64,000 bases of DNA from a virus: the IMG/VR virus record IMGVR_UViG_3300027887_000463, positions 9,371 through 73,370 of that record; one strand, given 5' to 3'. Numbering within the stretch: position 1 is the first letter of the stretch; the number at the start of each line of letters is the position of its first letter. The notes beneath the pieces were generated by a model that worked only from the letters and a program-made list of their open reading frames with translations, did no database searches and was not told the origin of the DNA. The translations under genes and the position numbers were made by a program. Of the stretch, positions 46,266-64,000 are shown one piece after another.

Positions 46266-46294
46266 TTGACTTTTAATTGCTTTTTTCGTATCAT
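46266..46294 (+). promoter_or_regulatory. sigma70-like promoter TTGACT-17 nt-TATCAT of the RNAP gene
   Basis: TTGACT at 46266-46271, a 17-nt spacer, TATCAT at 46289-46294, then AAAAAGGTG and the ATG at 46314. The track ORF start (TTG at 46266) is the -35 element itself. Confidence 0.6.
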
Positions 46295-46313
46295 AGACAA
46301 AAAGGTGTACTAC

Positions 46314-49300
46314 ATGGTAAATAAGCTAGATCCAGGTCTCCAGTCTAAGAACATCCAAGAAGCTATAGCAAATGTGATTAAATCACAGTTTCCTATTCAG
46401 GGTCGATATCAAACCTTGGAGCTTGTTGGGCCCCTAACAATTCAAGATGATTTAGATGATCAAGATTTTCCTGCTCAGCGTGAAGCCAAGCTCAGCGGAA
46501 GATCCTGGCAAGTTCCTGTGTACGGAACTTTCCGCCTCACTGATAATAAAACTGGAAATGTTATTGATGAAGCTAAGGATATAAAGGTCGCCAATATTCC
46601 TAAGCTTACGGATCGTTTCTCCATGCTCATCGAAGGTAATGAATATACTACGATGAATCAATTTCGTCTCAAGCCAGGAATTTATACTCGTAAAAAAGCT
46701 AACGACGAAATGGAGTCTCAATTTAATCTTGCCGTAGGTTATAACTTCAAAATGATGATGGATCCGGCAGATGGTATCTTCTATTTATATATTGGAAACC
46801 AGAAGTTCCACCTGTATACCCTGCTTCGTGCTTTTGGCGCCTCAGAAAACGAGATGATTAAATCCTGGGGCAATGCTCTGTTTGATAAAAACAAAAATGC
46901 TGGCCTCAACGAAGAGGGAAAAGAAATACCTCTGATGTGGGAGAAGTTGAAGAGACAAAAACTTCCATACGAAGAAGCTCTCAATGCTTTAAAGGATTAT
47001 TTCGATAAGACCAGAATTGATGTTGATACCACAGAAATTACCCTTGGTCGTGGAGTAGATCGTGTTACTCCAGATGCATTACTTCTTACTTCATCTAAAC
47101 TCTTACGTGTTCTACGTGGAGACGAGCCAGAAGATGAGCGCGATAGCCTAGTCTTCAAAGATCTCTATACCGTCGATGATCTTGTTCAAAAACATATCGA
47201 GAAGCGTGCTCCGAATATTCAAAAGAATCTTTTAGCCAGAACAGACCATAAGCAATCAATAAGAGAAATCATCTCACCAGATACTTATACCAAAGATATT
47301 AAGTCTTTTTTCACGCAAGGTGACTTAAGTAACCCATCCCCACAGACTAACCCCGTCGAGATGTTGGGCGAGTGGCGGAAGACTACTATCACAGGCACGG
47401 GTGGTATTCAGAGTTCACATGCCATCACCTTCAAAACTCGTGACATTCACCCAACACACTTGGGTTTTGTTGATCCTCTTAATACTCCAGAGTCGGGTAA
47501 AGTAGGTGTAACCCTTCCTCTAGCTATGCATGTTGAGAAACATGGAAAAGATATTAAGACACGATTGGTTACTCCAGAAGGAAAAGATATATTTGCCACA
47601 CCAGTAGAATTCTACAAAATGAAGGTCGGATTTCCAGATCAGCATGTTGAGGGTAAAGCTAAAGGCACCATGATTAAGGCGATGTATCGTGGGCAATCTG
47701 TGGTTCTTCCTGCCAAAGATATTGATGCATATATTCTTGACCCAACAAGTATGTTTGCTTGGACAACTAACCTTGTTCCATTCTTAGGACATAACTCGGG
47801 TAACCGCGCCCTCGTGGCCGCTAAAATGGTAACTCAAAGTGTCCCATTGAAAGCTCCAGAAACTCCTCTGGTAAAAGTTGTTGGACAAACCGGAGAAACG
47901 CTTGATTCAGTATTAGGCACGTTCTTAAAACCTAAGGTTCCTAAAGGATTTGGAACAGCCACTGTAATGAAGATCGATGATGACTACATTCATATAAGAA
48001 ATGAAAAGGGCGATCGTCATAAAGTTGGTTTATACAAAGACTTCCCGCTAAATCAAGAATCTTTTATTAATTCACGAGTTCTAGTTGATATCGGGCAGAA
48101 AGTCAAGGAGGGTGAACCTCTAGCGGATACTAACTTTTCAGACAAGAGTGGAAACTTTGCTCCTGGTGTAAATGTCAATGTTGCATATATGCCTTGGCAT
48201 GGATATAACTACGAGGACGGTATTGTTGTTACAGATTCTCTTTCCAAACGTTTTACATCAACTGTAATGTTGAAAAAGAATCTGCAGGTAGGGAAGGATA
48301 GTATTCTAGACCTAAAGAAATTTGTTTCATATTATCCTAAAGAATTGACGGTTGCCAACATTGAGAAAATGGATGATACAGGAGTAATAAAGGAGGGCGT
48401 TCGTATTGAGCCCGGTGAAACACTTATTGCTCATCTAAGCAAAATGGATCTAACGGATACACAAAAGATCCTAAAAAATATGAATCGTGTATTATCCAAT
48501 CCTTATCGTAATCAATCTCTTACCTGGGATGGAGAAAATCCAGGTGTTGTAACCCACGTTAGAAAAGTAGGAAATACTTATCAAATTCATGTGAAGGAAG
48601 AGCAACCACTCAAGGTTGGGGATAAGCTAGCCGCTCGGTATGGGGATAAAGGTATTGTTACGAAGATCATTTCAGATTCCGAAGCACCCCATACCAAAGA
48701 TGGAAATCGTATAGATATGATGGTTAATATTCATGGTGTAGTAGGCCGTATGAATATGGGGCAGCTACTTGAAGCAGCTGCTGGTCGAATCGCTATGAAG
48801 ACAGGCAAGCCTTTCTTAGTAAAGAACTTTGCTGACCGAGATTATCTATCTGATATTATGGCTGAAATGAAGAAGTTAAAACTTGAACCTAATGAGACGC
48901 TTCTGGATGGAGCAACGGGTAAGCCATTTGAAAAACCAGTCTTCTGGGGCAATAAGCATTATCTAAAGCTGATGCATGTAGTTGATCATAAGTACAAAGC
49001 TCGTGGAATCCCCGGATCTTATGATGCAAATGAGCAACCCGTCCATGGCGAGGTCGGAGGACAATCAGTTGATCCTCTACAGATGTATTCGTATCTTGCG
49101 CACGGTGCACGAGAGAATCTATATGAATTTACCGCGGTGAAAGGTCAGAAGAATGACGAGTATTGGCGTGCGCTACAGCTCGGTCTTCCGCCTCCTCCAC
49201 CCCAAAGAAACTTTGTCTTTGATAAGTTCATTAATTATATCAAGGCAGCTGGGGTTAATGTTGAGAAGAATGGAACTCGGTTTAAACTATTCCCAGCCAC

Positions 49301-52300
49301 CTCAGATGATATGTTAAAATGGTCTGCTGGCGAGCTTACAGATCCTGGTCATATGTTACGTGGAAAAGATCTTAGTGAAATTAAGGGTGGTTTATACGAC
49401 CCGAAATTAACGGGAGGGCTGCGAGGTACTAACTGGACCCACTTCAAACTAGAAGAGCCGATCCCCAATCCATTATATGAAAATGCAGTTAAGTCAATCT
49501 TAGGGCTAAATACACCTGCATTTGAACGTATCATCAATGAAGATGATAAAGATTCAAAGATGAAAGGTAACCAGCGTATAGCCAAAATGCTTTCGGATAT
49601 TGATATAGATGAAGAATTAGCCAAAGCTAAGGACGCCCTAAAGACAGCTGGACCTACACAAGTTAACACTTTGAACAAAAGGATTCGTTTCCTATCAGTG
49701 TTGAAGGAGCGTAATTTACGTCCTGAAAAAGCATATATGATGGAATTGATACCAGTACTTCCTCCAATTTATAGGCCAGTTTATCCATTACCTTCCGGAG
49801 ATACACAGAATTCTCCAATTAATTATCACTATCGTGACGTAGCTGTGTTGAATCAGTCTATAAAAGATATAAAAGCACAAGGTCATTTGATAGATGAGTT
49901 GGAACAGAACAGAAAGAATAGATCTGACTTATACAAATCTGTAAAAGCTTTAATGGGATTAGCAGAGCCCATCACCTTTACTACTCGTCAATATGAAGGA
50001 CTTCTTGGAACTCTTGCCGGAGATTCTCCAAAGCAAGGATTCATTCAGAACAAGTCCTGGTCGAAACGTCAAGATTTATCGGCTCGGTCCACGATCACAG
50101 TGGAACCTTCGCTCGGTATCGATCAAGTTGGATTGCCTGACGTCATGTTGAAAGATCTCTTTAAACCGTTTGTTATGAGAGAAATTGTACGCCAAGGTTA
50201 CAAACCAACTGAAGCCTTAGAACAGATAAAAACCTGGACTCCTGTAGCGGAACAAGCTCTGAATAATGCTATTAAACAGCGGCCCGTTATGCTTAACCGG
50301 GCACCATCTCTTCATAAGCATTCAGTACAGGCATTCTGGCCACAGAGATTTGAAGGACAAAGTATTCGTGTAAGTCCATTGACAGCAAAAGGATTTAACT
50401 TTGACTTTGATGGCGACACCATGTCAGTACACGTTCCTGTGTCTGAAAAAGCTGTGGAAGAAGCTAAAGGCATGCTGCCAACAAAGAATCTCTACAAAGC
50501 CGGCGATCGTCAGCATATGATTAATATTGAACAGGATTACCAGCTTGGTCTTTATTATTTATCACAGCTCGGAGCAGATACTGGAAAACGATTTTCTTCT
50601 ATTAGCAAGGCAATAAAGGAAGTTAAGGATCGTAATACTACCTTTACTTTAGATGGTAAAAAGATGAGTATCGGACAATGGGAAATTAACGACCCACTTC
50701 CTGATGCTTTGAAAGATTATACGCGACTCATGGATTCAAAAGCCGTCAAAGGTTTAGTAGATACATTATTTATGAAATATCCCGGTTATCTTGGAACTGT
50801 TATTGATACCTGGAAGGAGCTCGGAAGAAACTACGCAGTTCAAAGAGGTAGTACCGTGTCCATTACAGATATGGTCGTTGATCGCAGTTACAGGGATAAG
50901 ATCTTAAAAGATTATGAAGCTAAAATTAAGCCTGGTATGGATAAATATGAAGTCTCAAAGATCTATGGTGATGCTAAAGCTGAGATGGAAGAGGCTCAAG
51001 AAAAGCTTCTAAAGGGGAAGAACAACTTTTATGATATGTTACAAGCTGGAAGTACTTCGAAGAAGGGTCAGGTTACACAGATCCTTTCCATGCCGGGCAT
51101 TATGATGGACGTTCACGGAGAGCCAATTCCACATCCTGTAAAGAAATCTTGGTCAGAAGGTCTTGATACATTTGATTATTGGAACCAGTCTTATGGTGCC
51201 CGTAAAGGTGTTGTGGATCGTTCCGTTAATACTCAAGATTCTGGAGCTTTAAATAAAGAACTTCTATTTACTACTAAGAGTTTATTAGTTATTGAAGAAG
51301 ATTGTGGAACTCCAGAGGGTATTATATTAGATACTGATTCCAAAGAAGTTATGGATCGATTTCTTTCAAGTGATGTTCCGGGCGTTGGTAAGAGAAATGA
51401 TCTTGTTACAAATGAGCGTATGTTAAAAGCGAAAACAAAGAAAATAGAAAAACTTCCAGTACGATCATCTCTCACCTGTGAAGCTGAGGGCGGAGTTTGT
51501 CAGAAATGTTATGGCCTTATGGCAAACGGACAACTTGCTCGTATAGGAGAAAATGTAGGAGTTATTGACTCTGAGGCTGTTACTGAACGTTCTACTCAAT
51601 TACAAATGCAGACTTTCCATACTGGGGGTGTTGCAGGCGGAGGGGCAGCAGTAACATTAGGGTTCCCTAGATTGGAAGAGCTCTTGTATGTTCCACAGAA
51701 GATTCGAGACGCAGCGGTTCTTTCGCGAGAAGATGGTATTGTTACTCAAATTACAGAGAATCCAGCAGGAGGAAAAAATCTCTTCATTGGTCGTAGTGAG
51801 TACTATATTCCAAGAGAGAGACGTCTAGACGTTTCCGTCGGCTCTCGAGTAAAACGTGGTGATCGTTTAACAGATGGTTCCATTAAGCCACAGGAATTGT
51901 CGGAATTAAAAGAGCATCTTACAGCCCAGCAATATATAGCAGATGAAATCAATAAGATTTATGAGAATAAATTTGCAAGGAAAACTTTTGAAACCGTTTT
52001 ACGTGGTGTAGCAAATAATGCCGAAATAACAAATATTCCTGAAGAAGTAGAAGCAAGTGCTAATTTTATGCGGGGCGATACAGTACCGATAACTCGTGTA
52101 AAGAAATTAAATAGAGAGCTACTTGCTGAAGGAAAACCACAGATAGAATATAAGCCATTCTTTAAATCTATCTCTGTACTCCCATTACATAGTGACGATT
52201 GGCTAAGTAGATTAACAACAAACAGATTAAAACAAACTATCCAAGAGGCAGCTTCTATGGGTATGGAGAGCGATGTTAAGGGCACAGACCCGATGTCTGC

Positions 52301-52361
52301 TTATCTATATGGACTTGATTTTGGAAAAGATGTTGATCCAACAAAGAAGAAATTCTATTAA
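46314..52361 (+). CDS. fused beta-beta' multisubunit-type DNA-dependent RNA polymerase (single chain)
   Basis: The beta blocks come first: RDIHPTHLGFVDPLNTPESGKVG, LVPFLGHNSGNRALVAAKM, MPWHGYNYEDGIVV, RYGDKGIVTKI...GRMNMGQLLE and KLMHVVDHKYKARG. The beta' blocks follow: VLPPIYRPV, KRQDLSARSTITV, NRAPSLHKHSVQAF, NFDFDGDTMSVHVP, YGARKGVVDRSVNTQDSGALNKEL and TQLQMQTFHTGG. Confidence 0.9.
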   Translation: MVNKLDPGLQSKNIQEAIANVIKSQFPIQGRYQTLELVGPLTIQDDLDDQDFPAQREAKLSGRSWQVPVYGTFRLTDNKTGNVIDEAKDIKVANIPKLTDRFSMLIEGNEYTTMNQFRLKPGIYTRKKANDEMESQFNLAVGYNFKMMMDPADGIFYLYIGNQKFHLYTLLRAFGASENEMIKSWGNALFDKNKNAGLNEEGKEIPLMWEKLKRQKLPYEEALNALKDYFDKTRIDVDTTEITLGRGVDRVTPDALLLTSSKLLRVLRGDEPEDERDSLVFKDLYTVDDLVQKHIEKRAPNIQKNLLARTDHKQSIREIISPDTYTKDIKSFFTQGDLSNPSPQTNPVEMLGEWRKTTITGTGGIQSSHAITFKTRDIHPTHLGFVDPLNTPESGKVGVTLPLAMHVEKHGKDIKTRLVTPEGKDIFATPVEFYKMKVGFPDQHVEGKAKGTMIKAMYRGQSVVLPAKDIDAYILDPTSMFAWTTNLVPFLGHNSGNRALVAAKMVTQSVPLKAPETPLVKVVGQTGETLDSVLGTFLKPKVPKGFGTATVMKIDDDYIHIRNEKGDRHKVGLYKDFPLNQESFINSRVLVDIGQKVKEGEPLADTNFSDKSGNFAPGVNVNVAYMPWHGYNYEDGIVVTDSLSKRFTSTVMLKKNLQVGKDSILDLKKFVSYYPKELTVANIEKMDDTGVIKEGVRIEPGETLIAHLSKMDLTDTQKILKNMNRVLSNPYRNQSLTWDGENPGVVTHVRKVGNTYQIHVKEEQPLKVGDKLAARYGDKGIVTKIISDSEAPHTKDGNRIDMMVNIHGVVGRMNMGQLLEAAAGRIAMKTGKPFLVKNFADRDYLSDIMAEMKKLKLEPNETLLDGATGKPFEKPVFWGNKHYLKLMHVVDHKYKARGIPGSYDANEQPVHGEVGGQSVDPLQMYSYLAHGARENLYEFTAVKGQKNDEYWRALQLGLPPPPPQRNFVFDKFINYIKAAGVNVEKNGTRFKLFPATSDDMLKWSAGELTDPGHMLRGKDLSEIKGGLYDPKLTGGLRGTNWTHFKLEEPIPNPLYENAVKSILGLNTPAFERIINEDDKDSKMKGNQRIAKMLSDIDIDEELAKAKDALKTAGPTQVNTLNKRIRFLSVLKERNLRPEKAYMMELIPVLPPIYRPVYPLPSGDTQNSPINYHYRDVAVLNQSIKDIKAQGHLIDELEQNRKNRSDLYKSVKALMGLAEPITFTTRQYEGLLGTLAGDSPKQGFIQNKSWSKRQDLSARSTITVEPSLGIDQVGLPDVMLKDLFKPFVMREIVRQGYKPTEALEQIKTWTPVAEQALNNAIKQRPVMLNRAPSLHKHSVQAFWPQRFEGQSIRVSPLTAKGFNFDFDGDTMSVHVPVSEKAVEEAKGMLPTKNLYKAGDRQHMINIEQDYQLGLYYLSQLGADTGKRFSSISKAIKEVKDRNTTFTLDGKKMSIGQWEINDPLPDALKDYTRLMDSKAVKGLVDTLFMKYPGYLGTVIDTWKELGRNYAVQRGSTVSITDMVVDRSYRDKILKDYEAKIKPGMDKYEVSKIYGDAKAEMEEAQEKLLKGKNNFYDMLQAGSTSKKGQVTQILSMPGIMMDVHGEPIPHPVKKSWSEGLDTFDYWNQSYGARKGVVDRSVNTQDSGALNKELLFTTKSLLVIEEDCGTPEGIILDTDSKEVMDRFLSSDVPGVGKRNDLVTNERMLKAKTKKIEKLPVRSSLTCEAEGGVCQKCYGLMANGQLARIGENVGVIDSEAVTERSTQLQMQTFHTGGVAGGGAAVTLGFPRLEELLYVPQKIRDAAVLSREDGIVTQITENPAGGKNLFIGRSEYYIPRERRLDVSVGSRVKRGDRLTDGSIKPQELSELKEHLTAQQYIADEINKIYENKFARKTFETVLRGVANNAEITNIPEEVEASANFMRGDTVPITRVKKLNRELLAEGKPQIEYKPFFKSISVLPLHSDDWLSRLTTNRLKQTIQEAASMGMESDVKGTDPMSAYLYGLDFGKDVDPTKKKFY

Positions 52362-53791: not shown

Positions 53792-55960
53792 TTATTTGTT
53801 CACAACGACAACCTTTCCGTCGACCAGTTGAACTTCAAATGACCTTGCATCTGGATTCTCCAGAAGAAGATCTGCCATCTTTGATTCAACTTCCTTTTCA
53901 ATCAATCGACGCATTGGTCGAGCACCATATTCCGTAGAGTAGCCCTTTTCCAAGAACCAGTCTTCGGCTTCTGGTGTAAAGCTCATCGTAAACCGTTCGT
54001 TGATATCGTTTACCATAAGCTTCATGATCTGTCTCATACTGTCCTTATCGAGACGATTAAAGGTAACAATCTCGTCAAGGCGGTTGAGAAACTCCGGCTT
54101 GAAAAAGCTCTTCAACGCCGCCTTAAGATTCTTCTTCATATCATCATCTGCTGATGTTTCAGAGAATCCAAGGTTACGTTTTCCGGCGCTCTCAACACCG
54201 ATGTTTGACGTGATAATGATAATAGTATTTTTGAAACTGACAACCCTCCCTTGAGAATCAGTCAGAATACCATCATCAAAAATCTGAAGAAGCACATTGA
54301 ATACATCCGGATGCGCTTTCTCTATCTCATCAAACAATACAACTGAATACGGCTTCTTACGAACTTTCTCTGTAAGCTTTCCACCGCTATCATCGTATCC
54401 GATGTATCCCGGAGGAGCTCCGATAAGCGAAGAGATGGTGAACCGATCAAAGAATTCACTCATATCCAAACGAATCATTGCCTGTTCCGAATCAAACAGA
54501 TATCTAGCCAACTGTCTGGCCATCTCTGTTTTTCCAACCCCAGTAGGTCCAATGAAGAGGAAGGTGCTTGGGCGTTTATCGCTTTTGACACCGGTGCGTT
54601 TCCGTTTAATTGAGTTGGATACAGCTTGAATAGCATCTGGCTGTCCAACCAATCTTCCAGAAAGATCGGTATCAATGTGCTTTAACTTTTCCCGTTCCGA
54701 CTTATTGAGATTGGTGATAGGAACACCGGTTGTCTTCGAAACTACTCCTCGAATGATATCATTGTCGACCTGGACTGTGCCAGCGAGTTTTGCGACTGCC
54801 GCAGCTTCATCCAAAACGTCAATGGCTTTATCAGGAAGGAAACGATCCTGAATATAGCGTTCGGTGAGTTCAATAATGGTTGGAATAGCTTCCTGTGGAA
54901 TTTCCACCCCGTGATAAAGTTCATAGACATATTTGATTTGGCCGAGAATCTGTGCGGTTTCCTCCAGGGTTGGTTGCTCAATCATCACCTTCTGAAATCT
55001 CCGCTCCAACGCTCCATCCTTCTCGACATGCTTGCGAAATTCATTGGCAGTAGTTGCGCCAATGCATTTAATGTATCCACGTGATAGTGCCGGCTTGATG
55101 ATGTTTGCAGCATCACCAGTTCCCTCAGTACCTCCCGTACCCATAAGGGAATGCATCTCATCGATAAACAGAATGATATCAGGATTCTTCATCAGTTCCT
55201 TGATAATCATCTGCATCCTCTGCTCGAATTGTCCCCTGTACTGCGTTCCCGCAATAATGGAGTTGATGTCAAGTGAAAGGATTCTTTTGTTGAGAAGCAT
55301 TTTGGGAACATTACCCGCAGCGACGCGCATTGCCAGACCTTCGACAATAGCGGTCTTTCCCACGCCTGGCTCACCGATCAACGCAGGGTTGTTCTTCTTC
55401 CTGCGTGCTAGGATCTCGATGACACGTGAGATTTCGGATTCGCGTCCGATGACCGGATCTAACTTATTCTCCTGAGCCAGAATCGTCAGATCCATCGAAA
55501 AAGCATTTAGTGCCGGAGTGTTTTGTGAACTTGTCCGATCACTTGATACCTTTTTCTTTGGTTCTCCGACTTCAGTGTAGCCAACTTCATTGAGCATCTT
55601 GGACGCTACACTGTCTGGTGTACGATAGAGACTGTGAACTAAAGCATCTGCTTCTATTGTTCCGGTTATCGATATGAACTTGGCGAAGTTCAGAATATAA
55701 CGCATCGAATTCGAAACTTTCGGAAGAGGGTTCGTTACTGCAATATCCCTCTGTATTACACGGAATCGATCCGACAAGAGTGTACGAAGTTTACCAATGT
55801 TTGCCCCATTCTTGTTTAAAAGCGTAAGGCCTTCGTTATCACCTTGCTCCACGATTGCAAAAAGTAAGACTTCACTGGAAATTGTATCTTGGTTAAGCTC
55901 CGTCGCTTTCTTTCGAGCTAATCCAAAGATTTCCTCTGTCTTTGTTGAATACTGATTCAT
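53792..55960 (-). CDS. ClpA/ClpC-type two-ring AAA+ unfoldase
   Basis: It has a Clp_N-like N-domain. NBD1 carries GEPGVGKTAIVEGLA and ILFIDEMHSLMG. NBD2 carries FIGPTGVGKTEMARQLA, VVLFDEIEKAHPDVFNVLLQIFDDG and GARPMRRLIE. There is no long ClpB-type middle domain. I set the start at the ATG at 55960 (AAAAGGAG-6 nt-ATG), not the track start at 56017. Confidence 0.85.
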   Translation of the reverse strand: MNQYSTKTEEIFGLARKKATELNQDTISSEVLLFAIVEQGDNEGLTLLNKNGANIGKLRTLLSDRFRVIQRDIAVTNPLPKVSNSMRYILNFAKFISITGTIEADALVHSLYRTPDSVASKMLNEVGYTEVGEPKKKVSSDRTSSQNTPALNAFSMDLTILAQENKLDPVIGRESEISRVIEILARRKKNNPALIGEPGVGKTAIVEGLAMRVAAGNVPKMLLNKRILSLDINSIIAGTQYRGQFEQRMQMIIKELMKNPDIILFIDEMHSLMGTGGTEGTGDAANIIKPALSRGYIKCIGATTANEFRKHVEKDGALERRFQKVMIEQPTLEETAQILGQIKYVYELYHGVEIPQEAIPTIIELTERYIQDRFLPDKAIDVLDEAAAVAKLAGTVQVDNDIIRGVVSKTTGVPITNLNKSEREKLKHIDTDLSGRLVGQPDAIQAVSNSIKRKRTGVKSDKRPSTFLFIGPTGVGKTEMARQLARYLFDSEQAMIRLDMSEFFDRFTISSLIGAPPGYIGYDDSGGKLTEKVRKKPYSVVLFDEIEKAHPDVFNVLLQIFDDGILTDSQGRVVSFKNTIIIITSNIGVESAGKRNLGFSETSADDDMKKNLKAALKSFFKPEFLNRLDEIVTFNRLDKDSMRQIMKLMVNDINERFTMSFTPEAEDWFLEKGYSTEYGARPMRRLIEKEVESKMADLLLENPDARSFEVQLVDGKVVVVNK

Positions 55961-56361
55961 AGTACTCCTTTTGTGAATAAAATTTGGAAGGCTGCGATCC
56001 GCAATCCTTGATAACATACCGTCCGATTATTAGGCCATCGGGGCCTATTATCATTCCTACTATTCCATACTGCTACCTGATCACGAAACGTAACCCTGGA
56101 ATGGGAAATGCATTCCGCGATTGGGATGACAACCTTCCCTTGAAAGGGATAACCTGGCCAGGACTAGAGCTTCTCCACAGCCCCTTTGCTAGGGTAGGGC
56201 CGTGTGTCTGAAAAGTACAGATACCCCTCCCCAGGTCCTTTGCCTGGGCGTTAGGGCTCATCAAAAGTCGAAGCGACTTTCTATAGCTTGATAGCTTCTT
56301 CAAACCAAATTGGCCGAAGAATCCTCATGCGCCCACCTCTACTCGTAGCCAAGCTCCCTAA
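55961..56361 (-). other. long GC-enriched, hairpin-rich intergenic leader (candidate structured RNA)
   Basis: About 400 nt without a credible ORF in an otherwise gap-free genome. Several 6-bp-stem hairpins are present (for example TAGGCC-ATCGG-GGCCTA at 56031-56047, GGAATG..CATTCC ~56098-56116 and CCCAGG..CCTGGG ~56230-56248). Confidence 0.3.
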
Positions 56362-56529
56362 TTACTTCTTATCCTCAAGCTTCTTCAGAATCTTCATCCG
56401 CTCTTTTGTTGCGCCCGAGTCTTTTCCCAGTTTTCCGTCCAGACGATTCAGTCGGTCTGAAAGGGTCAACTTCTCGTACAATTCCTGGCGGACCTTCGCT
56501 TCTTCCTGCTTCTGTTTCCGGCTTTTCAT
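56362..56529 (-). CDS. candidate 55-aa coiled-coil protein in an alternative frame of the phosphatase tail
   Basis: GAGGT-8 nt-ATG at 56529. Product MKSRKQKQEEAKVRQELYEKLTLSDRLNRLDGKLGKDSGATKERMKILKKLEDKK. It looks more protein-like than the overlapping phosphatase tail (…PETEAGRSEGPPGIVREVDPFRPTESSGRK…). Confidence 0.35.
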   Translation of the reverse strand: MKSRKQKQEEAKVRQELYEKLTLSDRLNRLDGKLGKDSGATKERMKILKKLEDKK

Positions 56530-57226
56530 ATGATATTACCTCGACTTGATTTCCGTCTAGTTTAACAACTTGTTTTGTGAATTGAAGGCAGTCGATATCC
56601 CAATTGGAACCTTTTTGTTTTATCTTTGTGACCGGTGTATGGCCAAAGATCTGGGTTAATCCTTCCACGGGATTGAAGTCAACAGCAAAGTCAGACCAAA
56701 ATATACCTGCGTTTTGATCCACTCCCCCACGACTCATTCCAATGTTATATACTAACCCATCATCTACAGATCTCCAGGATTCTTGTAAAAAGAATTCAAT
56801 CAAATCAATGAAATCTTCTCTCTCATAGAGATCGGGGGTAGTTTCGAATGCCTCTCGAAGAAGCTGTGAATTAAGCCCTGCGTGTGTGATGAGTACCTTA
56901 TTTTCCTTATCCAGAATAAAAGGTTTCATCAGTTTCCACATACGGCTTTTTAATGCTATGATTTTTGCGTCGAAACTTGATGCATATCCCGAACACCGCA
57001 TACGCCTCATGAGATACGATAGCTCATGATTACCAAAAACACATTCAGTGGTTCCTCGTTCAATATCATTTAGAACCAACTCTAGAAGCTTGAACTGTTC
57101 TGTTCGTGAAAAGTAAAAGGAATCGAGCAGATCTCCAGTTAAAATCAGCTTCTCTTTTGTTGAACTCTTTACTTCGTGATAGAAGTTGATCTCACCATGG
57201 AGATCTCCGATTACGATTGCTTTCAT
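56375..57226 (-). CDS. calcineurin-like metallophosphoesterase (lambda Ser/Thr phosphatase type)
   Basis: Motifs IGDLHGE, TGDLLDS, FGNHE, ITHAGL and IFGHTP occur in the canonical order. The last ~48 codons may not be genuine (see the ORF at 56362). Confidence 0.75.
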   Translation of the reverse strand: MKAIVIGDLHGEINFYHEVKSSTKEKLILTGDLLDSFYFSRTEQFKLLELVLNDIERGTTECVFGNHELSYLMRRMRCSGYASSFDAKIIALKSRMWKLMKPFILDKENKVLITHAGLNSQLLREAFETTPDLYEREDFIDLIEFFLQESWRSVDDGLVYNIGMSRGGVDQNAGIFWSDFAVDFNPVEGLTQIFGHTPVTKIKQKGSNWDIDCLQFTKQVVKLDGNQVEVISYEKPETEAGRSEGPPGIVREVDPFRPTESSGRKTGKRLGRNKRADEDSEEA

Positions 57227-57718: not shown

Positions 57719-58036
57719 TTATACCTTAAATGGGCCATCTCCATTGTTGGCATCTCCCTCAAACATCTCTCCAGAGAACTCTTCTCCGGGAGCGGCGCCC
57801 TGCATTTCCGGACTTACTTCGGCAGCCTTAAGCTCGGCTTCGATGAATTTCTGCATATCTCCGCCCAGTTTTCCTTCGGGATCCTTTTCTGTTAGAATCG
57901 AGCAGAAAGCATCGACAATTTCTGCAGGAATAATTGGAGGACATAGAACCATTGGAGAGGCTTCTAAGGCAGCTTCGGGGTTACCCCACGCAACCATACG
58001 AACATCCCCATCTGTTACAACAAAATATTTATCCAT
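57719..58036 (-). CDS. hypothetical acidic protein
   Basis: 105-aa ORF, rich in D/E. It lies directly downstream of the terminator hairpin at 58045. Confidence 0.5.
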   Translation of the reverse strand: MDKYFVVTDGDVRMVAWGNPEAALEASPMVLCPPIIPAEIVDAFCSILTEKDPEGKLGGDMQKFIEAELKAAEVSPEMQGAAPGEEFSGEMFEGDANNGDGPFKV

Positions 58037-58044
58037 GTAAATAA

Positions 58045-58066
58045 AAGGGCACGGTTAGGTGCCCTT
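58045..58066 (-). terminator. rho-independent terminator overlapping the Pnkp-like stop codon
   Basis: AAGGGCAC-GGTTAG-GTGCCCTT. On the - strand it is followed by TTTTATTTAC. The TAA stop (58055-58057) sits in the loop. Confidence 0.6.
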
Positions 58067-60223
58067 CTCCTTGTAATACATATTTCTCAATGTGATGATA
58101 TCTCGTGATAGCTCTTCTTCAGTTCTGGTTTTGAGCCAGGCATAGAAGTAGTTGGCTTCGGGCGTAACCAATCCCGAGAGATTCACCTGTCGTCTTGCAC
58201 GAACAGCATCCTTCACTACACGCATATGTTTCCAGAAGTTGTAGTAAGGGAGCTTAAGCTTCATCATAAAGCCATTGGAATCCTCAAAGACAAATCCCTC
58301 GATATCCGAGGTAGTTGCCGTTTCACATTCCTTATAGAATTGAAGAAGCTCTTCCTTCGAGTTCAGAGTCTTATACAATTGCTTCGAGCGATGTGGCATA
58401 TTCAGTGAATGGGCAAATGCCAGCATCTCCTGATATGGCAACTTCTCGTAGTCAAGTGTTCTCCGCACTGCATCCAGAAGAACTAATCCCTGTCTGTCGG
58501 GATATGCAATGATATGAGGATCGGTATCTTGATCAACTACTTCGAAGACAAGAGTGACGTTGTGTCCCTTGAGAATTGCTTTGAGATAATCCGGATCTAC
58601 GTTTGTGGTTAATGCCCACACACGCTTGAAGATGTCCGGATAGATTCCCTCAACAGAACTCTTGGAAAGGAAGAGAACCTGATCGGAAGCAGTATCATAA
58701 CCGACCATACCCAGGAATCCATTATACTTCTCGTACACATGGACAGGATATTGAAGGTTAACCGTTTCAATCTTAGTCTCATCTCTTTCGTTCACATTGA
58801 AAAACTTATTATATGAACGAGCCACAATTTCATTTGTCACCGTATTGACGAACAGTCCTCTGGCTTTTACTGTCATTCCATCCCAAATCTTCTTGTAGAA
58901 CGCACCACGGTTGAAGTTAAACGAGGAGATATCTCCGAACTTGCGCTCATTGATGTGTCTGCTCTTCCTTAAATCCTCCACGAACGAGGAAGGACCGAGA
59001 GTGGTTTCCACTTTTATATTTTTTGGACGAAATACAGTATTCGGAATCTCCCATGTCTTGATCTCCAAAGAATCACGATAGAGAGTAACAGCCCGAAGAT
59101 TTCCTCCGAACTCAATGTTACCCTGCAGATTATAATACTTTGGGTTGATCTTTATAGGCGATTCCGTAACGTTTCTATGGCCAGATATCTGGATGGCATC
59201 CGGCGGAGAATTCTTCTCCCACGATTCAGCAACCTCCAGCATATCTTCATAGCGTCCCACACCTTTGATAAATTGTTCGGTAGCAATTGTGATGAGGTCT
59301 TCAGGGAGCTTAGAGATGCCTCCGTGGGTTACCAGAACGAGCTGATTTCCCAAACGGAAATATGCAACCTGAGCAAACTTCCTACACAACTGCCGTACGG
59401 ATCCCTTATCCAAAGCTGCGGACTCGAGTTCTCTTTTGGTTTGGAAAAGGAATTCATTGGAACGAATCTTTTCCTCTTCCTGGTTGGCCCAGTATCTCAA
59501 CCACCGCTCGTGATTCCCCTCCAGAAGAAGTATATTAGGCTTTTCATAATTCTCGATAAGCCAACGTACCACCTCGGTATTCTGAATCCCACGATCGATA
59601 AAATCACCAACAAAGATGTAATAGTGATTTTCGTGATAGCCAACTGCATCGAACCACACTTTCAGCGGTTCATAACATCCGTGAATATCTCCGATAATGT
59701 GCACCTGTTCATATTCAAATGCAAGCGGTGCATAATCAAAGACGCCCATATAGTCAGCCGGCTTGACAACCTGGACATAACCAGGAACCGGTTGACTCTT
59801 TAGTCGAGCTTCGATATTATCGAGCACAAATTCCGGAACCCACTTATATTCCGGACGGGTCTTATTCTGAAGTTTGCATTGTTCCAGAGGAACATCGGAG
59901 AAGTCGATACAATAGATACGGTATCGATACTCTCCTGCCAACTTCTTATACTTGGCAAAATCGCTGGCCTTGGAGTGAGTAGCATCAATGAACACCAGTT
60001 CTCCGCGTTCCATGCGAGTTTCCAACATTTCGAATAGAAGTCCCCAAACCTTTCGGTCATTCTCCGGGCTAATCGCGTACACTCCCTTAGGAGTAAGTAC
60101 CGGCGCCTGGAGTTGGAGACGAATGTCATCAGCGCACAATGTGTAAGGGCGCAGGCCTTCCTGTTCGAGCCAGGTAGACTTTCCGCATCCGACATTACCG
60201 CGGAGAAGATAGAGGTGTCTCAT
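58055..60223 (-). CDS. polynucleotide kinase-phosphatase with C-terminal ligase-like domain (Pnkp-like RNA repair enzyme)
   Basis: The N-terminal P-loop is RGNVGCGKST. The central metallophosphatase has IGDIHGC, VGDFIDRG, EGNHE, VTHGGI and SGHRN. The C-terminal part carries the nucleotidyltransferase motif I-like YEKYNGFLG. This order matches bacterial Pnkp. Confidence 0.65.
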   Translation of the reverse strand: MRHLYLLRGNVGCGKSTWLEQEGLRPYTLCADDIRLQLQAPVLTPKGVYAISPENDRKVWGLLFEMLETRMERGELVFIDATHSKASDFAKYKKLAGEYRYRIYCIDFSDVPLEQCKLQNKTRPEYKWVPEFVLDNIEARLKSQPVPGYVQVVKPADYMGVFDYAPLAFEYEQVHIIGDIHGCYEPLKVWFDAVGYHENHYYIFVGDFIDRGIQNTEVVRWLIENYEKPNILLLEGNHERWLRYWANQEEEKIRSNEFLFQTKRELESAALDKGSVRQLCRKFAQVAYFRLGNQLVLVTHGGISKLPEDLITIATEQFIKGVGRYEDMLEVAESWEKNSPPDAIQISGHRNVTESPIKINPKYYNLQGNIEFGGNLRAVTLYRDSLEIKTWEIPNTVFRPKNIKVETTLGPSSFVEDLRKSRHINERKFGDISSFNFNRGAFYKKIWDGMTVKARGLFVNTVTNEIVARSYNKFFNVNERDETKIETVNLQYPVHVYEKYNGFLGMVGYDTASDQVLFLSKSSVEGIYPDIFKRVWALTTNVDPDYLKAILKGHNVTLVFEVVDQDTDPHIIAYPDRQGLVLLDAVRRTLDYEKLPYQEMLAFAHSLNMPHRSKQLYKTLNSKEELLQFYKECETATTSDIEGFVFEDSNGFMMKLKLPYYNFWKHMRVVKDAVRARRQVNLSGLVTPEANYFYAWLKTRTEEELSRDIITLRNMYYKEKGT

Positions 60224-60690
60224 TATGACTTCCTTAACATAGTTAAGATTTGATTTCCTTCTCGTTTTGGAGTATCCATTGCGAAATGGGTTAGTTCTGC
60301 TTTTATTTTTTCGAGTAATTCAAATCCCTGTTCGGGACGAGTTATTTCTCGACCATGAAAGCGAACTATCAAACGAATAGGATGTCCCTTTTCGAGTAGT
60401 TCATTGATATGCCGAGCTTTTGTTTGAAGATCATGGTCGGCAATATTAATATTGAATCGAAACTCTTTTAGATCTGGCGCAGGTTTCGTCTTATGCGCTT
60501 TTTTCTGTTGATACTGAAACTTCTCAAAGTCTTGAATCTTGCAGACACCGCGCCCAACTTCTACAAGATCCAAACTCCTTGTATGTGCTAATTTTATAGC
60601 CTCGGTCGTAGCTAGAGTTCCGAGATTATTTCCGTTCTCGTCAATAACAAGAACGGGAGTGTCCGTGATCTGATTATTTACACGGTTCAA
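60223..60690 (-). CDS. infC: translation initiation factor IF-3 homolog
   Basis: 155 aa and collinear with bacterial IF3. The N-domain reads VLVIDENGNNLGTLATTEAIKLAHTRSLDLVEV...VCKIQDFEKFQYQQKK. After a basic linker the C-domain reads KEFRFNINIADHDLQTKARHINELLEKGHPIRLIVRFHGRE. Confidence 0.8.
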   Translation of the reverse strand: MNRVNNQITDTPVLVIDENGNNLGTLATTEAIKLAHTRSLDLVEVGRGVCKIQDFEKFQYQQKKAHKTKPAPDLKEFRFNINIADHDLQTKARHINELLEKGHPIRLIVRFHGREITRPEQGFELLEKIKAELTHFAMDTPKREGNQILTMLRKS

Positions 60691-62443: not shown

Positions 62444-63637
62444 CTACTTCTTTGGAATTGAAAGGTCGAGTGCCAAATCCTTGGCGGTCTTGACTGAGAG
62501 CATATCAATCAAAGCCGTTGCGGAATTATAGCTACCCTTACCAGCACCGCTTCCCTCAAAAATCACATCAGGAACCCACTTCTGTTTGCCAATGTTTTCG
62601 GCAAAAGCAGTCATGACCGCCTGATAGGTTTCCAACTTCTGGGTCAAGGCACCATCAGCAATAATGATCTTACGCTTGTATTCAGCATCAGCTTCAGCTT
62701 CGAGAATTCTCTTCTGCTTATACTGACCGGCTGTTTTGGTTTCAAGCGTAGCAACTTCCAGCTTCTGCTGGGCTTCTGTTACCATCTTGGCCTTGATTAC
62801 TTCCTGTTCCCATTTGGCTTTTGCGGCTTCTGCACGACCATTCTGTTCCGCGGTAATCGCTTGCTGTTCAGCTTCGCGAGCCTTTGCGGAGGCAGTTTGA
62901 ATCTGCATAATTGCCTGTTGCTGAGCCTGGATCTGCTTCTCAACGTTTTCGTCGTAGCCAACGTTATTGATCGAAAGGTTGAAAGTCTTTACTCCAAAAA
63001 CTGCAAGAGGAGATTCATCCTGCCGTTCAAAGGTGCCATCCTTACCTTTCAATACGTCAACAACCGTGAGAGTACGTGGAGAACCAGATAGAGGATCCTT
63101 ATCTTGAACCTGATATGAACGGGTCTTATAAACCCCATTCTCGATCTGGTCTTCGATAAAACGGATTAACTCATTCCGGCGTTCAGCATAAGACTCTTTT
63201 GACGACATAAGAGGGCCAGTCATATAGACTGATTTCTCTACGATCGTTCGTACGAGTTGCTGCTCAATGGCCTGCTGGCTTCCATACTTGGTATGAAGCA
63301 TAACCAAATGCTGTTCATCCACAGGCATTTCCCACGCAATTGATCCAGAGACACTGCCATGACCACCATCATTGAATCGAACTGAGATGGCCTGATTCAT
63401 TTCTGTTCCCTGATCATCTTTTTCTGAGAACCAGAATTGGGATCGCTTTTGATACTTGGTGACTTTGCCGAAACCCTGCCACTTGAAATTTCCAGGAGTC
63501 ATGTGCCAGGTGAGATCTCCCGAAAGAGACTGAACCACCATGATCTCGTCGGCGTCGTTACTTTCGAAAATGTTGAAACTTGCAAAGATCAGAACGATCG
63601 CAAGAATGGCAACGGCTCCGAGGCCGAAGATCTTGCG
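62444..63637 (-). CDS. SPFH/band-7 (prohibitin-like) membrane protein; 5' end unresolved or truncated at the junction
   Basis: An N-terminal TM helix ([23 protein letters not shown]) is followed by an SPFH-like core and a long A/E/Q/K coiled coil. No start codon lies upstream of the TM helix before the sequence turns into GC-rich foreign DNA. The track's 518-aa ORF is a read-through artefact. Confidence 0.6.
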
Positions 63638-63670
63638 ACCCGCGTCGAGCTCGGCGGGCGGCGGTTCCTG

Positions 63671-64000
63671 CGCCGTTCCGGCCGCGGCGCGTTCGTCACA
63701 CGCCTTGCCGACGGCCGGCCGCTCGGCGTGATCAACGCGATGGGCCGGGTCTTCATGCCGCCGGTCGACAATCCGTTCGAGGCGGTCGCCGCCGCCGTCG
63801 ATCGCCTGTCGCGCGAATCCCGCGTCATCGTCGTCGACATGCACGCGGAAGCCACGGCCGAGAAGATCGCGATGGGCTGGCACCTCGATGGCCGCGCGGC
63901 CGCGCTGGTCGGCACGCACACCCACGTGCAGACCGCCGACGCCCGCATCCTTCCAGGCGGCACGGCGTACATCACCGATGTCGGCATGACCGGGCCGCAC
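63671..64000 (+). CDS. internal fragment of a YmdB-like metallophosphoesterase (2',3'-cyclic-nucleotide phosphodiesterase family), bacterial, truncated at both ends
   Basis: The + frame reads ...[18 protein letters not shown]...[57 protein letters not shown]. This matches the YmdB signature DFHAEATSEK...[24 protein letters not shown]. The DNA is very GC-rich, unlike the rest of the window. Confidence 0.7.

Follow-up and report, generated by a model that had tools for sequence, protein, structure and literature searches.

An open reading frame on the minus strand of an uncultured phage genome, at 58055..60223 of the 64-kb window (the whole stretch of DNA analyzed here), raises the question of how an enzyme resembling bacterial Pnkp could repair RNA without Hen1. 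A sequence-only reading had described its product as a trifunctional kinase-phosphatase-ligase with the architecture of bacterial Pnkp, had seen no Hen1 nearby and had proposed an anti-defense role in tRNA repair. The ligase of bacterial Pnkp (Rnl4) depends on the N-domain of Hen1, and a missing Hen1 would be a puzzle because the bacterial Pnkp architecture is assumed.

Domains and active sites of the 722-residue protein

The ORF begins with ATG and encodes 722 amino acids, at the position that had been given for it. Three Pfam domains are matched in the order kinase, Metallophos and ligase, namely AAA_33 (residues 4-141, E 6.6e-15), Metallophos (residues 174-354, E 3e-16) and RNA_lig_T4_1 (residues 453-661, E 2e-41, 142.6 bits for a cutoff of 28.3, with the whole profile covered); no 2H domain was found with Pfam. 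The protein also matches PHROG 8238 ("RNA ligase") over its full length, residues 1-720 aligning with positions 1-733 of the 737 of the profile (E 2.8e-210). An AF2 model was obtained with high confidence (mean pLDDT 91.8), and profile annotation together with structure prediction, the check that had been suggested, does place a ligase domain at the C-terminus. Each of the three active sites is intact, the catalytic-motif residues being at least 97% conserved in the query and 120 homologs, and the trifunctional description is thus borne out.

The N-terminal polynucleotide 5'-kinase domain (residues ~1-150, 59774..60223, minus strand) contains the P-loop G9-x4-G14-K15-S16-T17, encoded at 60173-60199, and the acceptor-binding motif D32-x-x-R35. 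It is followed by a binuclear metallophosphoesterase domain (residues ~165-400, 59024..59731, minus strand) in which all five motifs announced for the phosphatase were located: GDIHG (178-182), GDFIDRG (206-212), GNHE (236-239), H300 and GH (348-349). The closest structural relatives of both modules are those of Clostridium thermocellum Pnkp (CthPnkp). Position 181, in the GDxHG motif, is a histidine as in wild-type CthPnkp; an aspartate occurs there in 0 of 121 homologs and is also absent from the enzymes of phages Twort (GDVHS) and Goe11 and of Phascolarctobacterium. A His-to-Asp switch in this motif, which would signal an enzyme restricted to cyclic phosphodiesterase activity, was thus not found in these enzymes.

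The remainder of the protein is formed by an RNA ligase adenylyltransferase domain (residues ~412-658, 58250..58990, minus strand) and a helical C-domain (residues 659-722, 58058..58249, minus strand). The lysine motif EKYNGFLG, to which attention had been drawn, is intact at residues 498-505 (encoded at 58709-58732) and provides motif I, K499-Y-N501-G502. Motif III corresponds to E561 followed by D568-P569-H570, motif IV to E642-G643 and motif V to K655/K657, while R455, K473 and F474 are residues of an Rnl1-type N-subdomain. K499, E561, E642, K655, K657, R455, K473 and F474 are all invariant or nearly so in the query and 120 homologs, and K665-x-x-R668 and R713 are invariant in the C-domain.

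The clade of the ligase domain and the missing Hen1

Comparison of profiles with the PDB places the ligase closest to the ligase domain of fungal Trl1 (Trl1-LIG, E 3e-28 to 7e-18) and next to T4 Rnl1 (E 6.6e-11). When the ligase domain alone was used in a single-sequence search at E <= 10, Trl1-LIG was the only ligase recovered, and the Rnl4 ligase of Pnkp is not among the matches listed in any sequence or fold search. The NCBIfam model TIGR04075 (bacter_Pnkp) scores 60.7 bits for a cutoff of 750 and aligns with residues 6-381 only, leaving the ligase uncovered. The equivalog model of T4 RnlA, TIGR02308, stays at 29.8 for a cutoff of 242, and the tRNA-binding C-domain of the T4 type could not be aligned with the 722-residue protein. 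What is present is an all-helical C-domain on an Rnl1-like adenylyltransferase, as in the Rnl6 clade, and this C-domain is homologous to that of Trl1-LIG (Rnl6). The ligase domain belongs therefore to a clade other than Rnl4. In the literature searched, papers speaking of "Rnl6" name fungal enzymes alone.

Trl1-LIG and T4 Rnl1 are autonomous ligases, each with its own C-domain. The kind of ligase domain thus accounts for the absence of Hen1, and the description as bacterial Pnkp has to be limited to the kinase and phosphatase halves. The absence itself was confirmed in the approximately 50 ORFs of the window and in sampled loci of relatives. None of these ORFs, compared with Pfam at E <= 0.01, matched Hen1 or any methyltransferase, nor Tpt1, 2H-CPD, RtcB or RlaP, and a tblastn search of the window with E. 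coli KptA returned noise only. We also sampled 160 loci encoding the family (80 viral and 80 bacterial, from 73 lineages, 38 of them viral), where no Hen1-type gene appeared among the recurrent or top neighbor clusters, the bacterial clusters being without Pfam annotation. Likewise, no RNA methyltransferase was present in three close relatives or among the annotated genes that flank the enzyme in Twort and Goe11; the methylases that recur at the 80 viral loci are of the DNA classes N6_N4, Dam and C5.

One could still assume a Pnkp-type enzyme that requires a Hen1-like 2'-O-methyltransferase, encoded elsewhere or replaced by another protein. The domain order shared with bacterial Pnkp and the structural proximity of the healing modules to those of CthPnkp would fit with this idea, and the phage genome was viewed over 64 kb alone, so that a partner may lie elsewhere. 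However, the TIGR04075 score, the lack of Rnl4 among the listed matches, the complete C-domain owned by the ligase and the lack of an RNA methyltransferase in the window, in the relatives and in the neighbor clusters largely refute it, and we regard it as extremely unlikely.

Genomic setting and family

The phage behind the window is large and uncultured and encodes a fused beta/beta' RNA polymerase. No near-identical DNA was found in cultured phages; the exact 722-residue protein recurs in three metagenome assemblies. Within the window, the ligase gene belongs to an early or metabolic block, outside the tail genes. The same window carries a reverse transcriptase gene and giant tail-fiber genes; a diversity-generating retroelement was considered around the former and rejected, as no template/variable repeat pair was found.

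Immediately upstream lies a gene for a homolog of translation initiation factor IF3 (60223..60690, minus strand, 155 amino acids, with IF3_N and IF3_C), the stop codon of which overlaps the ligase start codon (TAATG). This gene pair is conserved in relatives at 74% and 52% identity, and the translational coupling suggests a module that would keep translation going during infection. At the other end, the stop codon TAA (58055-58057) sits inside the loop (58053-58058) of a hairpin at 58043..58068 (minus strand), whose 10-bp stem pairs 58059-58068 with 58043-58052 around 6 nt and is followed by a U-rich tail. The fold of 66 nt has a dG of -17.1 kcal/mol (z = -3.25, equalled by 2 of 200 shuffles), and the 74%-identical relative L003 keeps both the hairpin and the position of the stop within the loop, though the loop sequence differs. 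The position of the stop codon in the loop, as reported by the sequence-only reading, is therefore correct. Its identification as a terminator is less secure: a consensus terminator scan did not call it, because the T-run is partly paired within the stem, and the next co-directional gene begins just 18 nt past the stop codon. We thus consider the hairpin as a candidate terminator, at which termination may be incomplete, or else as a candidate attenuator or RNA-stability element. The downstream gene (57719..58036, minus strand) encodes a small acidic protein of 105 amino acids (pI 4.05) without any Pfam match; it is conserved beside the ligase in the closest relative, and is 63% identical to a 94-residue ORF in L003 (E 3e-44).

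The query is a further copy of a common phage "RNA ligase" family already annotated in databases, and its architecture is fairly ordinary rather than rare. PHROG 8238 members occur in 153 cultured phage genomes, 101 of them from Staphylococcus phages, in at least 414 IMG/VR contigs and in at least 458 bacterial species. They include ORF008 of Staphylococcus phage Twort, gp147 of Brochothrix phage A9 and proteins of the SPbeta-like Bacillus phages Goe11 and Goe12. The phage members are 36-45% identical to the query over the whole protein, with diagnostic residues alike; the query copy differs in that it resides in an unrelated large phage and is translationally coupled to IF3. Members of the family also stand alone in bacterial chromosomes, at a distance from phage genes. 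The searchable literature, which did not include Burroughs and Aravind (2016, NAR 44:8525), the likeliest earlier description, contains no functional or biochemical work on it.

At the sampled loci, tRNA genes lie within 10 kb of the enzyme in half of the viral lineages (19/38), a Thg1-like gene in 7/38, a MazF/PemK RNase in 7/38 and RlaP in 1/38. A universal partner gene was sought by neighbor clustering at the 80 viral and 80 bacterial loci and none emerged, the best cluster being a DNA methylase (12 of 38 lineages). In one bacterial lineage, Phascolarctobacterium, the enzyme lies in an operon RlaP - WCX regulator - KptA - Thg1-like - kinase/phosphatase/ligase, with KptA (Pfam 2e-42) two genes upstream of the enzyme. 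This is the single case of KptA adjacency among the 73 lineages sampled (0/38 viral), and neither the window nor any of the 80 viral loci contains Tpt1/KptA. We also considered a phage Tpt1 travelling with the ligase family, which is ruled out by the 98 KptA-positive phage records: they belong mostly to Erwinia, Dickeya, Klebsiella and Serratia jumbo phages and to phiCD211-like phages, and barely overlap the 153 ligase records. No Staphylococcus, Lactobacillus or Streptomyces phage is among the KptA matches in cultured phages, and in phiCD211 no annotated RNA ligase lies within 6 kb of kptA.

Proposed function, end chemistry and relation to known systems

We think it likely that the gene product is an autonomous "heal-and-seal" RNA repair enzyme, with 2'-OH end chemistry as the favored mode. 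From the conserved motifs we infer that the N-terminal P-loop kinase would phosphorylate the 5'-OH, while the central Mn-type metallophosphoesterase would open the cyclic phosphate and then remove it, leaving a 2'-OH,3'-OH end like wild-type C. thermocellum Pnkp. The C-terminal ligase would adenylylate itself at K499, pass AMP to the 5'-phosphate and seal the break. Hen1 would not be needed, because the ligase has its own Trl1-type C-domain and is not a Hen1-completed Pnkp (Rnl4) module. The most reasonable role for the gene is repair of RNA, presumably tRNA, by which host RNases could be countered. This agrees with the recurrent neighbors (tRNA genes, Thg1-like genes, MazF-type RNases, RlaP), which support a role in RNA repair; in the 64-kb window itself there is no tRNA gene and no nuclease target was identified. 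T4 Pnkp and Rnl1 repair tRNA-Lys cut by PrrC, and an anti-defense tRNA repair had been proposed here. Its repair part is supported by the catalytic motifs and the neighbors. A specifically anti-defense function is not, because the family also stands alone in bacterial chromosomes, and countering defense may be one of its uses.

A role outside repair would be another possibility, such as RNA processing or circularization (for example ligation of introns or tRNA fragments), action on DNA ends or tail-fiber attachment like T4 gp63 (Rnl1). It could be supported by a weaker match to PHROG 562, "RNA ligase and tail fiber protein attachment catalyst" (E 2.4e-30), by the reverse transcriptase and giant tail-fiber genes sharing the window, and by the chromosomal copies apart from phage genes. 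However, the obligatory fusion of 5'-kinase, 2',3'-phosphoesterase and ligase with conserved active sites is most simply fitted to the ends left by cyclizing RNases, the neighbors named above recur, and the gene is in the early or metabolic block and not with tail genes. We hold such a role to be very unlikely.

The nature of the ends that are sealed deserves a closer discussion. Instead of a T4-like ligation of a 2'-OH end, one could propose a yeast-like one, in which the 3'-OH,2'-PO4 end made by the metallophosphoesterase is captured, before removal of the 2'-phosphate, by a Trl1-like ligase that needs or prefers it; the 2'-PO4 at the junction would then be removed by a Tpt1/KptA of the host or element, or be tolerated. 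Trl1-LIG is the closest relative of the ligase in sequence and fold, C-domain included. In the Chaetomium LIG, N150, H227, R334 and R337 are validated 2'-PO4 ligands (PMC6379707, PMC11404444, PMC12440814), and their counterparts N501, H570, K665 and R668 are invariant or nearly so in the family. T4 Rnl1 does not have these ligands (its motif I has Asp, the His is absent and the C-domain cannot be aligned). Moreover, a 2'-phosphomonoester arises naturally as an intermediate of the Pnkp-type phosphoesterase (PMC1920235), and the Phascolarctobacterium operon associates KptA with the enzyme. On the other hand, H181 is always His and never Asp: wild-type CthPnkp fully dephosphorylates the end, which feeds T4-type ligation, whereas its H189D mutant traps the 2'-PO4 (PMC1920235). 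KptA adjacency is restricted to one lineage of the 73 sampled and to no viral one of the 38, and the cultured phages with KptA matches do not include those of Staphylococcus, Lactobacillus or Streptomyces. The phosphatase domain also retains R211 and H238, residues associated with monoesterase activity in CthPnkp mutagenesis. Some activities of Tpt1 enzymes are unrelated to 2'-PO4 junctions. Finally, K665 is a Lys where Trl1 has Arg, and the His-Arg-Arg triad is not a universal marker because plant Trl1 requires the 2'-PO4 without these arginines (PMC12440814). Altogether, we favor T4-like ligation and consider the yeast-like route rather unlikely, although N501, H570, K665 and R668, as judged from the alignment, would be left unexplained by a purely T4-type 2'-OH chemistry. 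It is unlikely, though worth stating, that the family represents Trl1-type (Rnl6) ligases of prokaryotes, in which a transient 2'-phosphate from the enzyme's own Pnkp-type phosphoesterase licenses sealing.

A single polypeptide undoing the cut of any RNase that forms a cyclic phosphate would be a broad counter-defense, possible targets being anticodon nucleases, HEPN, Cas13, Csm6 or MazF-type effectors. Many gut bacteria encode a member of the family, as do such well-known phages as the Twort-like ones of Staphylococcus and the SPbeta-like ones of Bacillus. In structure, the family's sealing domain stands close to the fungal tRNA ligase, which is currently an antifungal target and which the literature searched treats as a fungal clade, and the query keeps the residues of the 2'-phosphate pocket. 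End specificity bears on the origin of the eukaryotic tRNA ligase and on the substrates of bacterial Tpt1/KptA. If the Trl1-type reading were true, bacteria and the viruses that infect them would use tRNA ligation chemistry of the yeast style, and RNA junctions with a 2'-PO4 would arise naturally for the bacterial Tpt1/KptA enzymes, which so far lack a substrate. The family would then be a prokaryotic or phage relative of the tRNA splicing ligase of eukaryotes, possibly its ancestor.

The comparison with fungal Trl1-LIG ("Rnl6"; PDB 6n0t, 6n67, 8rbj, 9qw7) shows the KxNG motif I and a C-terminal I-x-L-R motif in both, His570 aligning with His227 and K665-x-x-R668 with R334-x-x-R337 of the 2'-PO4 pocket. 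A Lys replaces R334 in the query, and its C-domain is shorter (~64 residues versus ~80). Trl1 is arranged as ligase (N-terminal), GTP-dependent kinase and 2H cyclic phosphodiesterase, whereas the query has kinase, metallophosphoesterase and ligase, with healing domains from unrelated families; a Tpt1 partner was not found at the 80 viral loci of the query family. With the bacterial Pnkp of the Pnkp-Hen1 system of C. thermocellum, the query shares the domain order and the GDxHG histidine, but its ligase module is not Rnl4, no Hen1 gene is nearby and a need for the Hen1 N-domain is not expected. With T4 Pnkp and Rnl1 it shares the logic of a 5'-kinase, a 2',3'-phosphatase and an ATP-dependent ligase, the phage setting and the RNA_lig_T4_1 domain, R455, K473 and F474 corresponding to T4 R54, K75 and F76. 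T4 splits these functions over two proteins where the query uses one polypeptide, its phosphatase is a DxDxT acylphosphatase instead of a metallophosphoesterase, and its motif I is KEDG instead of KxNG. The end chemistry of T4 Pnkp and Rnl1 (2'-OH,3'-OH) is nevertheless the likeliest for the query.

Domains, motifs and structural relatives of the enzyme

We confirmed that the ORF at 58055..60223 (- strand) starts with ATG and encodes 722 amino acids. A Pfam search of this protein returned three domains, each above its gathering score: a P-loop kinase (AAA_33, residues 4-141), a metallophosphoesterase (Metallophos, residues 174-354) and an RNA ligase (RNA_lig_T4_1, residues 453-661, E 2e-41, full profile covered). 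The sequence-only reading of a trifunctional kinase, phosphatase and ligase is thus upheld, as are the five metallophosphoesterase motifs that it mentioned (GDIHG, GDFIDRG, GNHE, H300 and GH349) and the EKYNGFLG motif, which spans residues 498-505 with K499 as its lysine. When the protein was aligned with 120 homologs, the canonical catalytic residues of all three domains were invariant or nearly so.

Each module was then considered separately by searching the family profile against PDB sequences. The kinase matches that of Clostridium thermocellum Pnkp (CthPnkp; E ~5e-12). For the phosphatase, the matches are lambda-phosphatase and catalytic subunits of the PP2A type, and searching with the 722-aa protein as a single sequence also brought up the phosphatase domain of CthPnkp (4j6o). 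The LIG domains of the fungal tRNA ligase Trl1 match the ligase (3e-28 to 7e-18) from position 430 of the profile to position 725, reaching the C-terminus, and T4 Rnl1 matches it more weakly (6.6e-11, positions 451-671). A search with the ligase region as a single sequence gave Trl1-LIG as its sole match in solved structures, even at E <= 10. Structure comparison ranked Trl1-LIG 6n0t at the top (score 29.4, 2.5 Å, 307 aligned residues), followed by Candida glabrata LIG 9qw7 (26.4, 2.8 Å, 299), the CthPnkp phosphatase 4j6o (23.9, 2.8 Å, 224), T4 Rnl1 9do4 (23.4, 2.9 Å, 246), the CthPnk kinase 4gp6 (18.5, 1.9 Å, 150) and T4 Pnk 1ly1 (16.0, 2.0 Å, 135), in agreement with Foldseek. The ~60 residues by which the alignment with Trl1-LIG exceeds that with T4 Rnl1 form the helical C-domain. 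The bacterial Pnkp ligase domain (Rnl4), which depends on Hen1, was not among the matches listed in the profile, single-sequence or fold searches, and the bacterial Pnkp NCBIfam equivalog, whose cutoff is 750 bits, scored 60.7 on the kinase and phosphatase half only.

The gene in its window

The window belongs to a large tailed phage: its genes include those for baseplate J, a sigma factor, a fused beta/beta' RNA polymerase and a tail fibre of 3,241 aa. Upstream of the ligase gene, a 155-aa IF3 homolog (60223-60690, - strand; IF3_N and IF3_C) has a stop codon overlapping the ligase start (TAATG), which couples the two genes translationally; the pair is kept in the 74% and 52% identity relatives. 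Directly downstream lies a 105-aa acidic ORF (57719-58036, - strand; pI 4.05, 21 Asp+Glu), 63% identical to the same-position ORF of the closest relative. It has no family match and may act as a mimic of nucleic acid or in anti-defence. A stand-alone metallophosphoesterase (56375-57226, - strand) is found two genes downstream of the trifunctional enzyme.

The stop codon had been placed in the loop of a terminator hairpin. The hairpin itself is there: a G+C-rich stem of 10 bp (58043-58052 pairing with 58059-58068) followed by a U-rich tail, with the TAA stop codon in its 6-nt loop and a z of -3.25 against shuffles for the 66-nt fold. It is kept in the 74%-identical relative, with the stop codon in a loop of altered sequence. 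However, because the next co-directional gene begins only 18 nt past this stop codon and a consensus terminator scan did not call the site, its role as a terminator is plausible rather than established.

Several other features of the window deserve mention. The fused polymerase ORF (46266-52361, + strand; 2,031 aa) combines beta-like Rpb2 domains 3 and 6 with beta'-like Rpb1 domains 1, 2, 4 and 5, and is kept in related phages at ~2,014 aa. A 294-aa reverse transcriptase (40479-41363, - strand; RVT_1 E 4e-23) is not evidently part of a diversity-generating retroelement, since no template/variable repeat pair was found near it or elsewhere in the window. We also noted a 741-aa ClpB/ClpA-like double-AAA+ chaperone (53792-56017, - strand), a MoxR-type ATPase with a VWA-domain partner (42663-45380, - strand) and, in the tail-fibre protein (17566-27291, + strand), a C-terminal S74 intramolecular chaperone domain. 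Finally, the GC content rises abruptly from ~45% to ~71% at 63560-64000, the final ~400 bp, cutting the 5' end of an SPFH/Band_7 gene (62444 to ~63730) which in another assembly has a normal 427 aa and ordinary upstream neighbours; the window end is probably an assembly chimera.

Distribution and neighbourhoods of the family

The 722-aa protein belongs over its full length to PHROG 8238 'RNA ligase' (E 2.8e-210), and the gene is best described as a new member, of predicted activity, of a known and catalogued family. By tblastn, this family is present in 153 cultured phage genomes, full length in 113, including 101 Staphylococcus phages (Twort ORF008 among them), 18 Lactobacillus and 11 Streptomyces phages, Brochothrix A9 and SPbeta-like Bacillus phages at 44-45% identity. 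The latter label the gene 'hypothetical protein'. In Bacillus phage Goe11 (locus L006, 7001-9199), the annotated CDS begins 36 nt downstream of the homology start and thereby loses the start of the kinase P-loop, so that its start codon is probably mis-annotated. Among 8,000 candidates from the protein database, at least 2,591 match at E <= 1e-10, and 120/120 of the matches listed carry the same three Pfam domains. At least 414 IMG/VR loci and at least 458 bacterial species representatives also have the family, among the latter Lachnospiraceae, the Bacillus pumilus group, Phascolarctobacterium and Candidatus Saccharibacteria. The ligase is common to all 38 viral lineages while the backbone genes of the window occur in only 1/80 viral loci, a pattern which argues that it behaves as a mobile accessory gene.

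Recurrent neighbours were counted within 10 kb of the ligase in the 38 viral lineages. They comprise tRNA genes (19/38), Thg1-like tRNA 5'-end repair enzymes (7/38), RlaP (1/38) and methyltransferases of DNA, not of RNA. In 7 of the 38 lineages (32 loci), a PemK/MazF-type endoribonuclease gene precedes the repair enzyme by ~1 kb (for example L042 6051-6485, E 7e-35); an RNase making cyclic-phosphate ends there adjoins an enzyme repairing them, which suggests a functional pair. Stand-alone metallophosphoesterases recur too (for example L007 5733-6440), among them two clusters (7/38 and 6/38 lineages; for example L016 17502-18338), to neither of which the one in our window belongs by BLAST; others are found in Twort (NinI-like, three genes upstream) and in the 52% relative. 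In Phascolarctobacterium, the enzyme comes last in a single-strand operon (L151 5143-12199; also L154, L155 and L161) after RlaP (2e-93), a 418-aa protein, a WCX-domain regulator, a 63-aa ORF, Tpt1/KptA (2e-42) and a Thg1-like gene (1e-30). L155 is labelled E. coli with this same cassette, and so is probably a binning contaminant.

Altogether, these neighbourhoods support a function in RNA repair, probably of tRNA. The claim that Hen1 is missing nearby was borne out, as neither Hen1 nor any other methyltransferase was found within the window, nor was Tpt1, a 2H phosphoesterase, RtcB or a tRNA gene; moreover, the sampled neighbourhoods show that no Hen1-type partner belongs to the system.

End chemistry and relationship to known ligases

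The best-supported reading is that of an autonomous heal-and-seal enzyme, with predicted activities and a putative substrate and anti-defence role. The kinase would phosphorylate the 5'-OH, the metallophosphoesterase would remove the 2',3'-cyclic phosphate and the ligase would seal the break via a K499-AMP intermediate. One would then wonder which 3' end is sealed. The fungal LIG domains form the 'Rnl6' clade of the Shuman and Peschek laboratories, marked by a distinctive C-domain and by a pocket for the 2'-PO4 at the 3' end of the RNA; in Chaetomium LIG this pocket consists of Asn150 (motif I), His227, Arg334 and Arg337, and the His-Arg-Arg triad was confirmed by mutagenesis (PMC6379707, PMC11404444, PMC12440814). 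In our profile alignment these positions are occupied by N501 (121/121 sequences), H570 (121/121), K665 (120/121) and R668 (121/121), kept also in the Twort and Goe11 proteins and in one from Phascolarctobacterium. In the literature accessible to us, 'Rnl6' was found for fungal enzymes only, and we found no statement linking the ligase of this family to Trl1-LIG.

The invariance of this Trl1-type pocket would suit a yeast-type route using a 2'-PO4 end, as would the KptA-containing operon of one lineage and the fact that such phosphoesterases normally pass through a 2'-phosphomonoester intermediate (PMC1920235). We nevertheless consider this route rather unlikely, and sealing of a 2'-OH end as in T4 fairly probable. 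Indeed, the His of the GDxHG motif (H181) is retained, and Asp replaces it in 0 homologs of the alignment; in CthPnkp the wild-type His lets the end be dephosphorylated completely and joined by T4-type ligation, whereas with H189D the 2'-PO4 is trapped and repair is diverted to the yeast ligase (PMC1920235). Furthermore, Tpt1/KptA was not found in any sampled viral locus or in the phage groups carrying the family.

The proposal of a tRNA repair or counter-defence role stays plausible alongside the trifunctional assignment, but the framing as a Pnkp lacking its Hen1 is mistaken, since its ligase falls in an autonomous, Trl1-like clade. The interest of the enzyme comes chiefly from this Trl1/Rnl6 relationship and from the question of 2'-phosphate dependence that it raises. 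On the same profile, T4 Rnl1 differs from the family by an Asp in motif I (KEDG), has no match to H570 and, past motif V, offers no sequence that can be aligned. Since counterparts of the Trl1-LIG pocket residues are kept and T4 Rnl1 departs from them, the ligase module is Trl1-LIG-like, and neither T4-Rnl1-like nor Pnkp-like.
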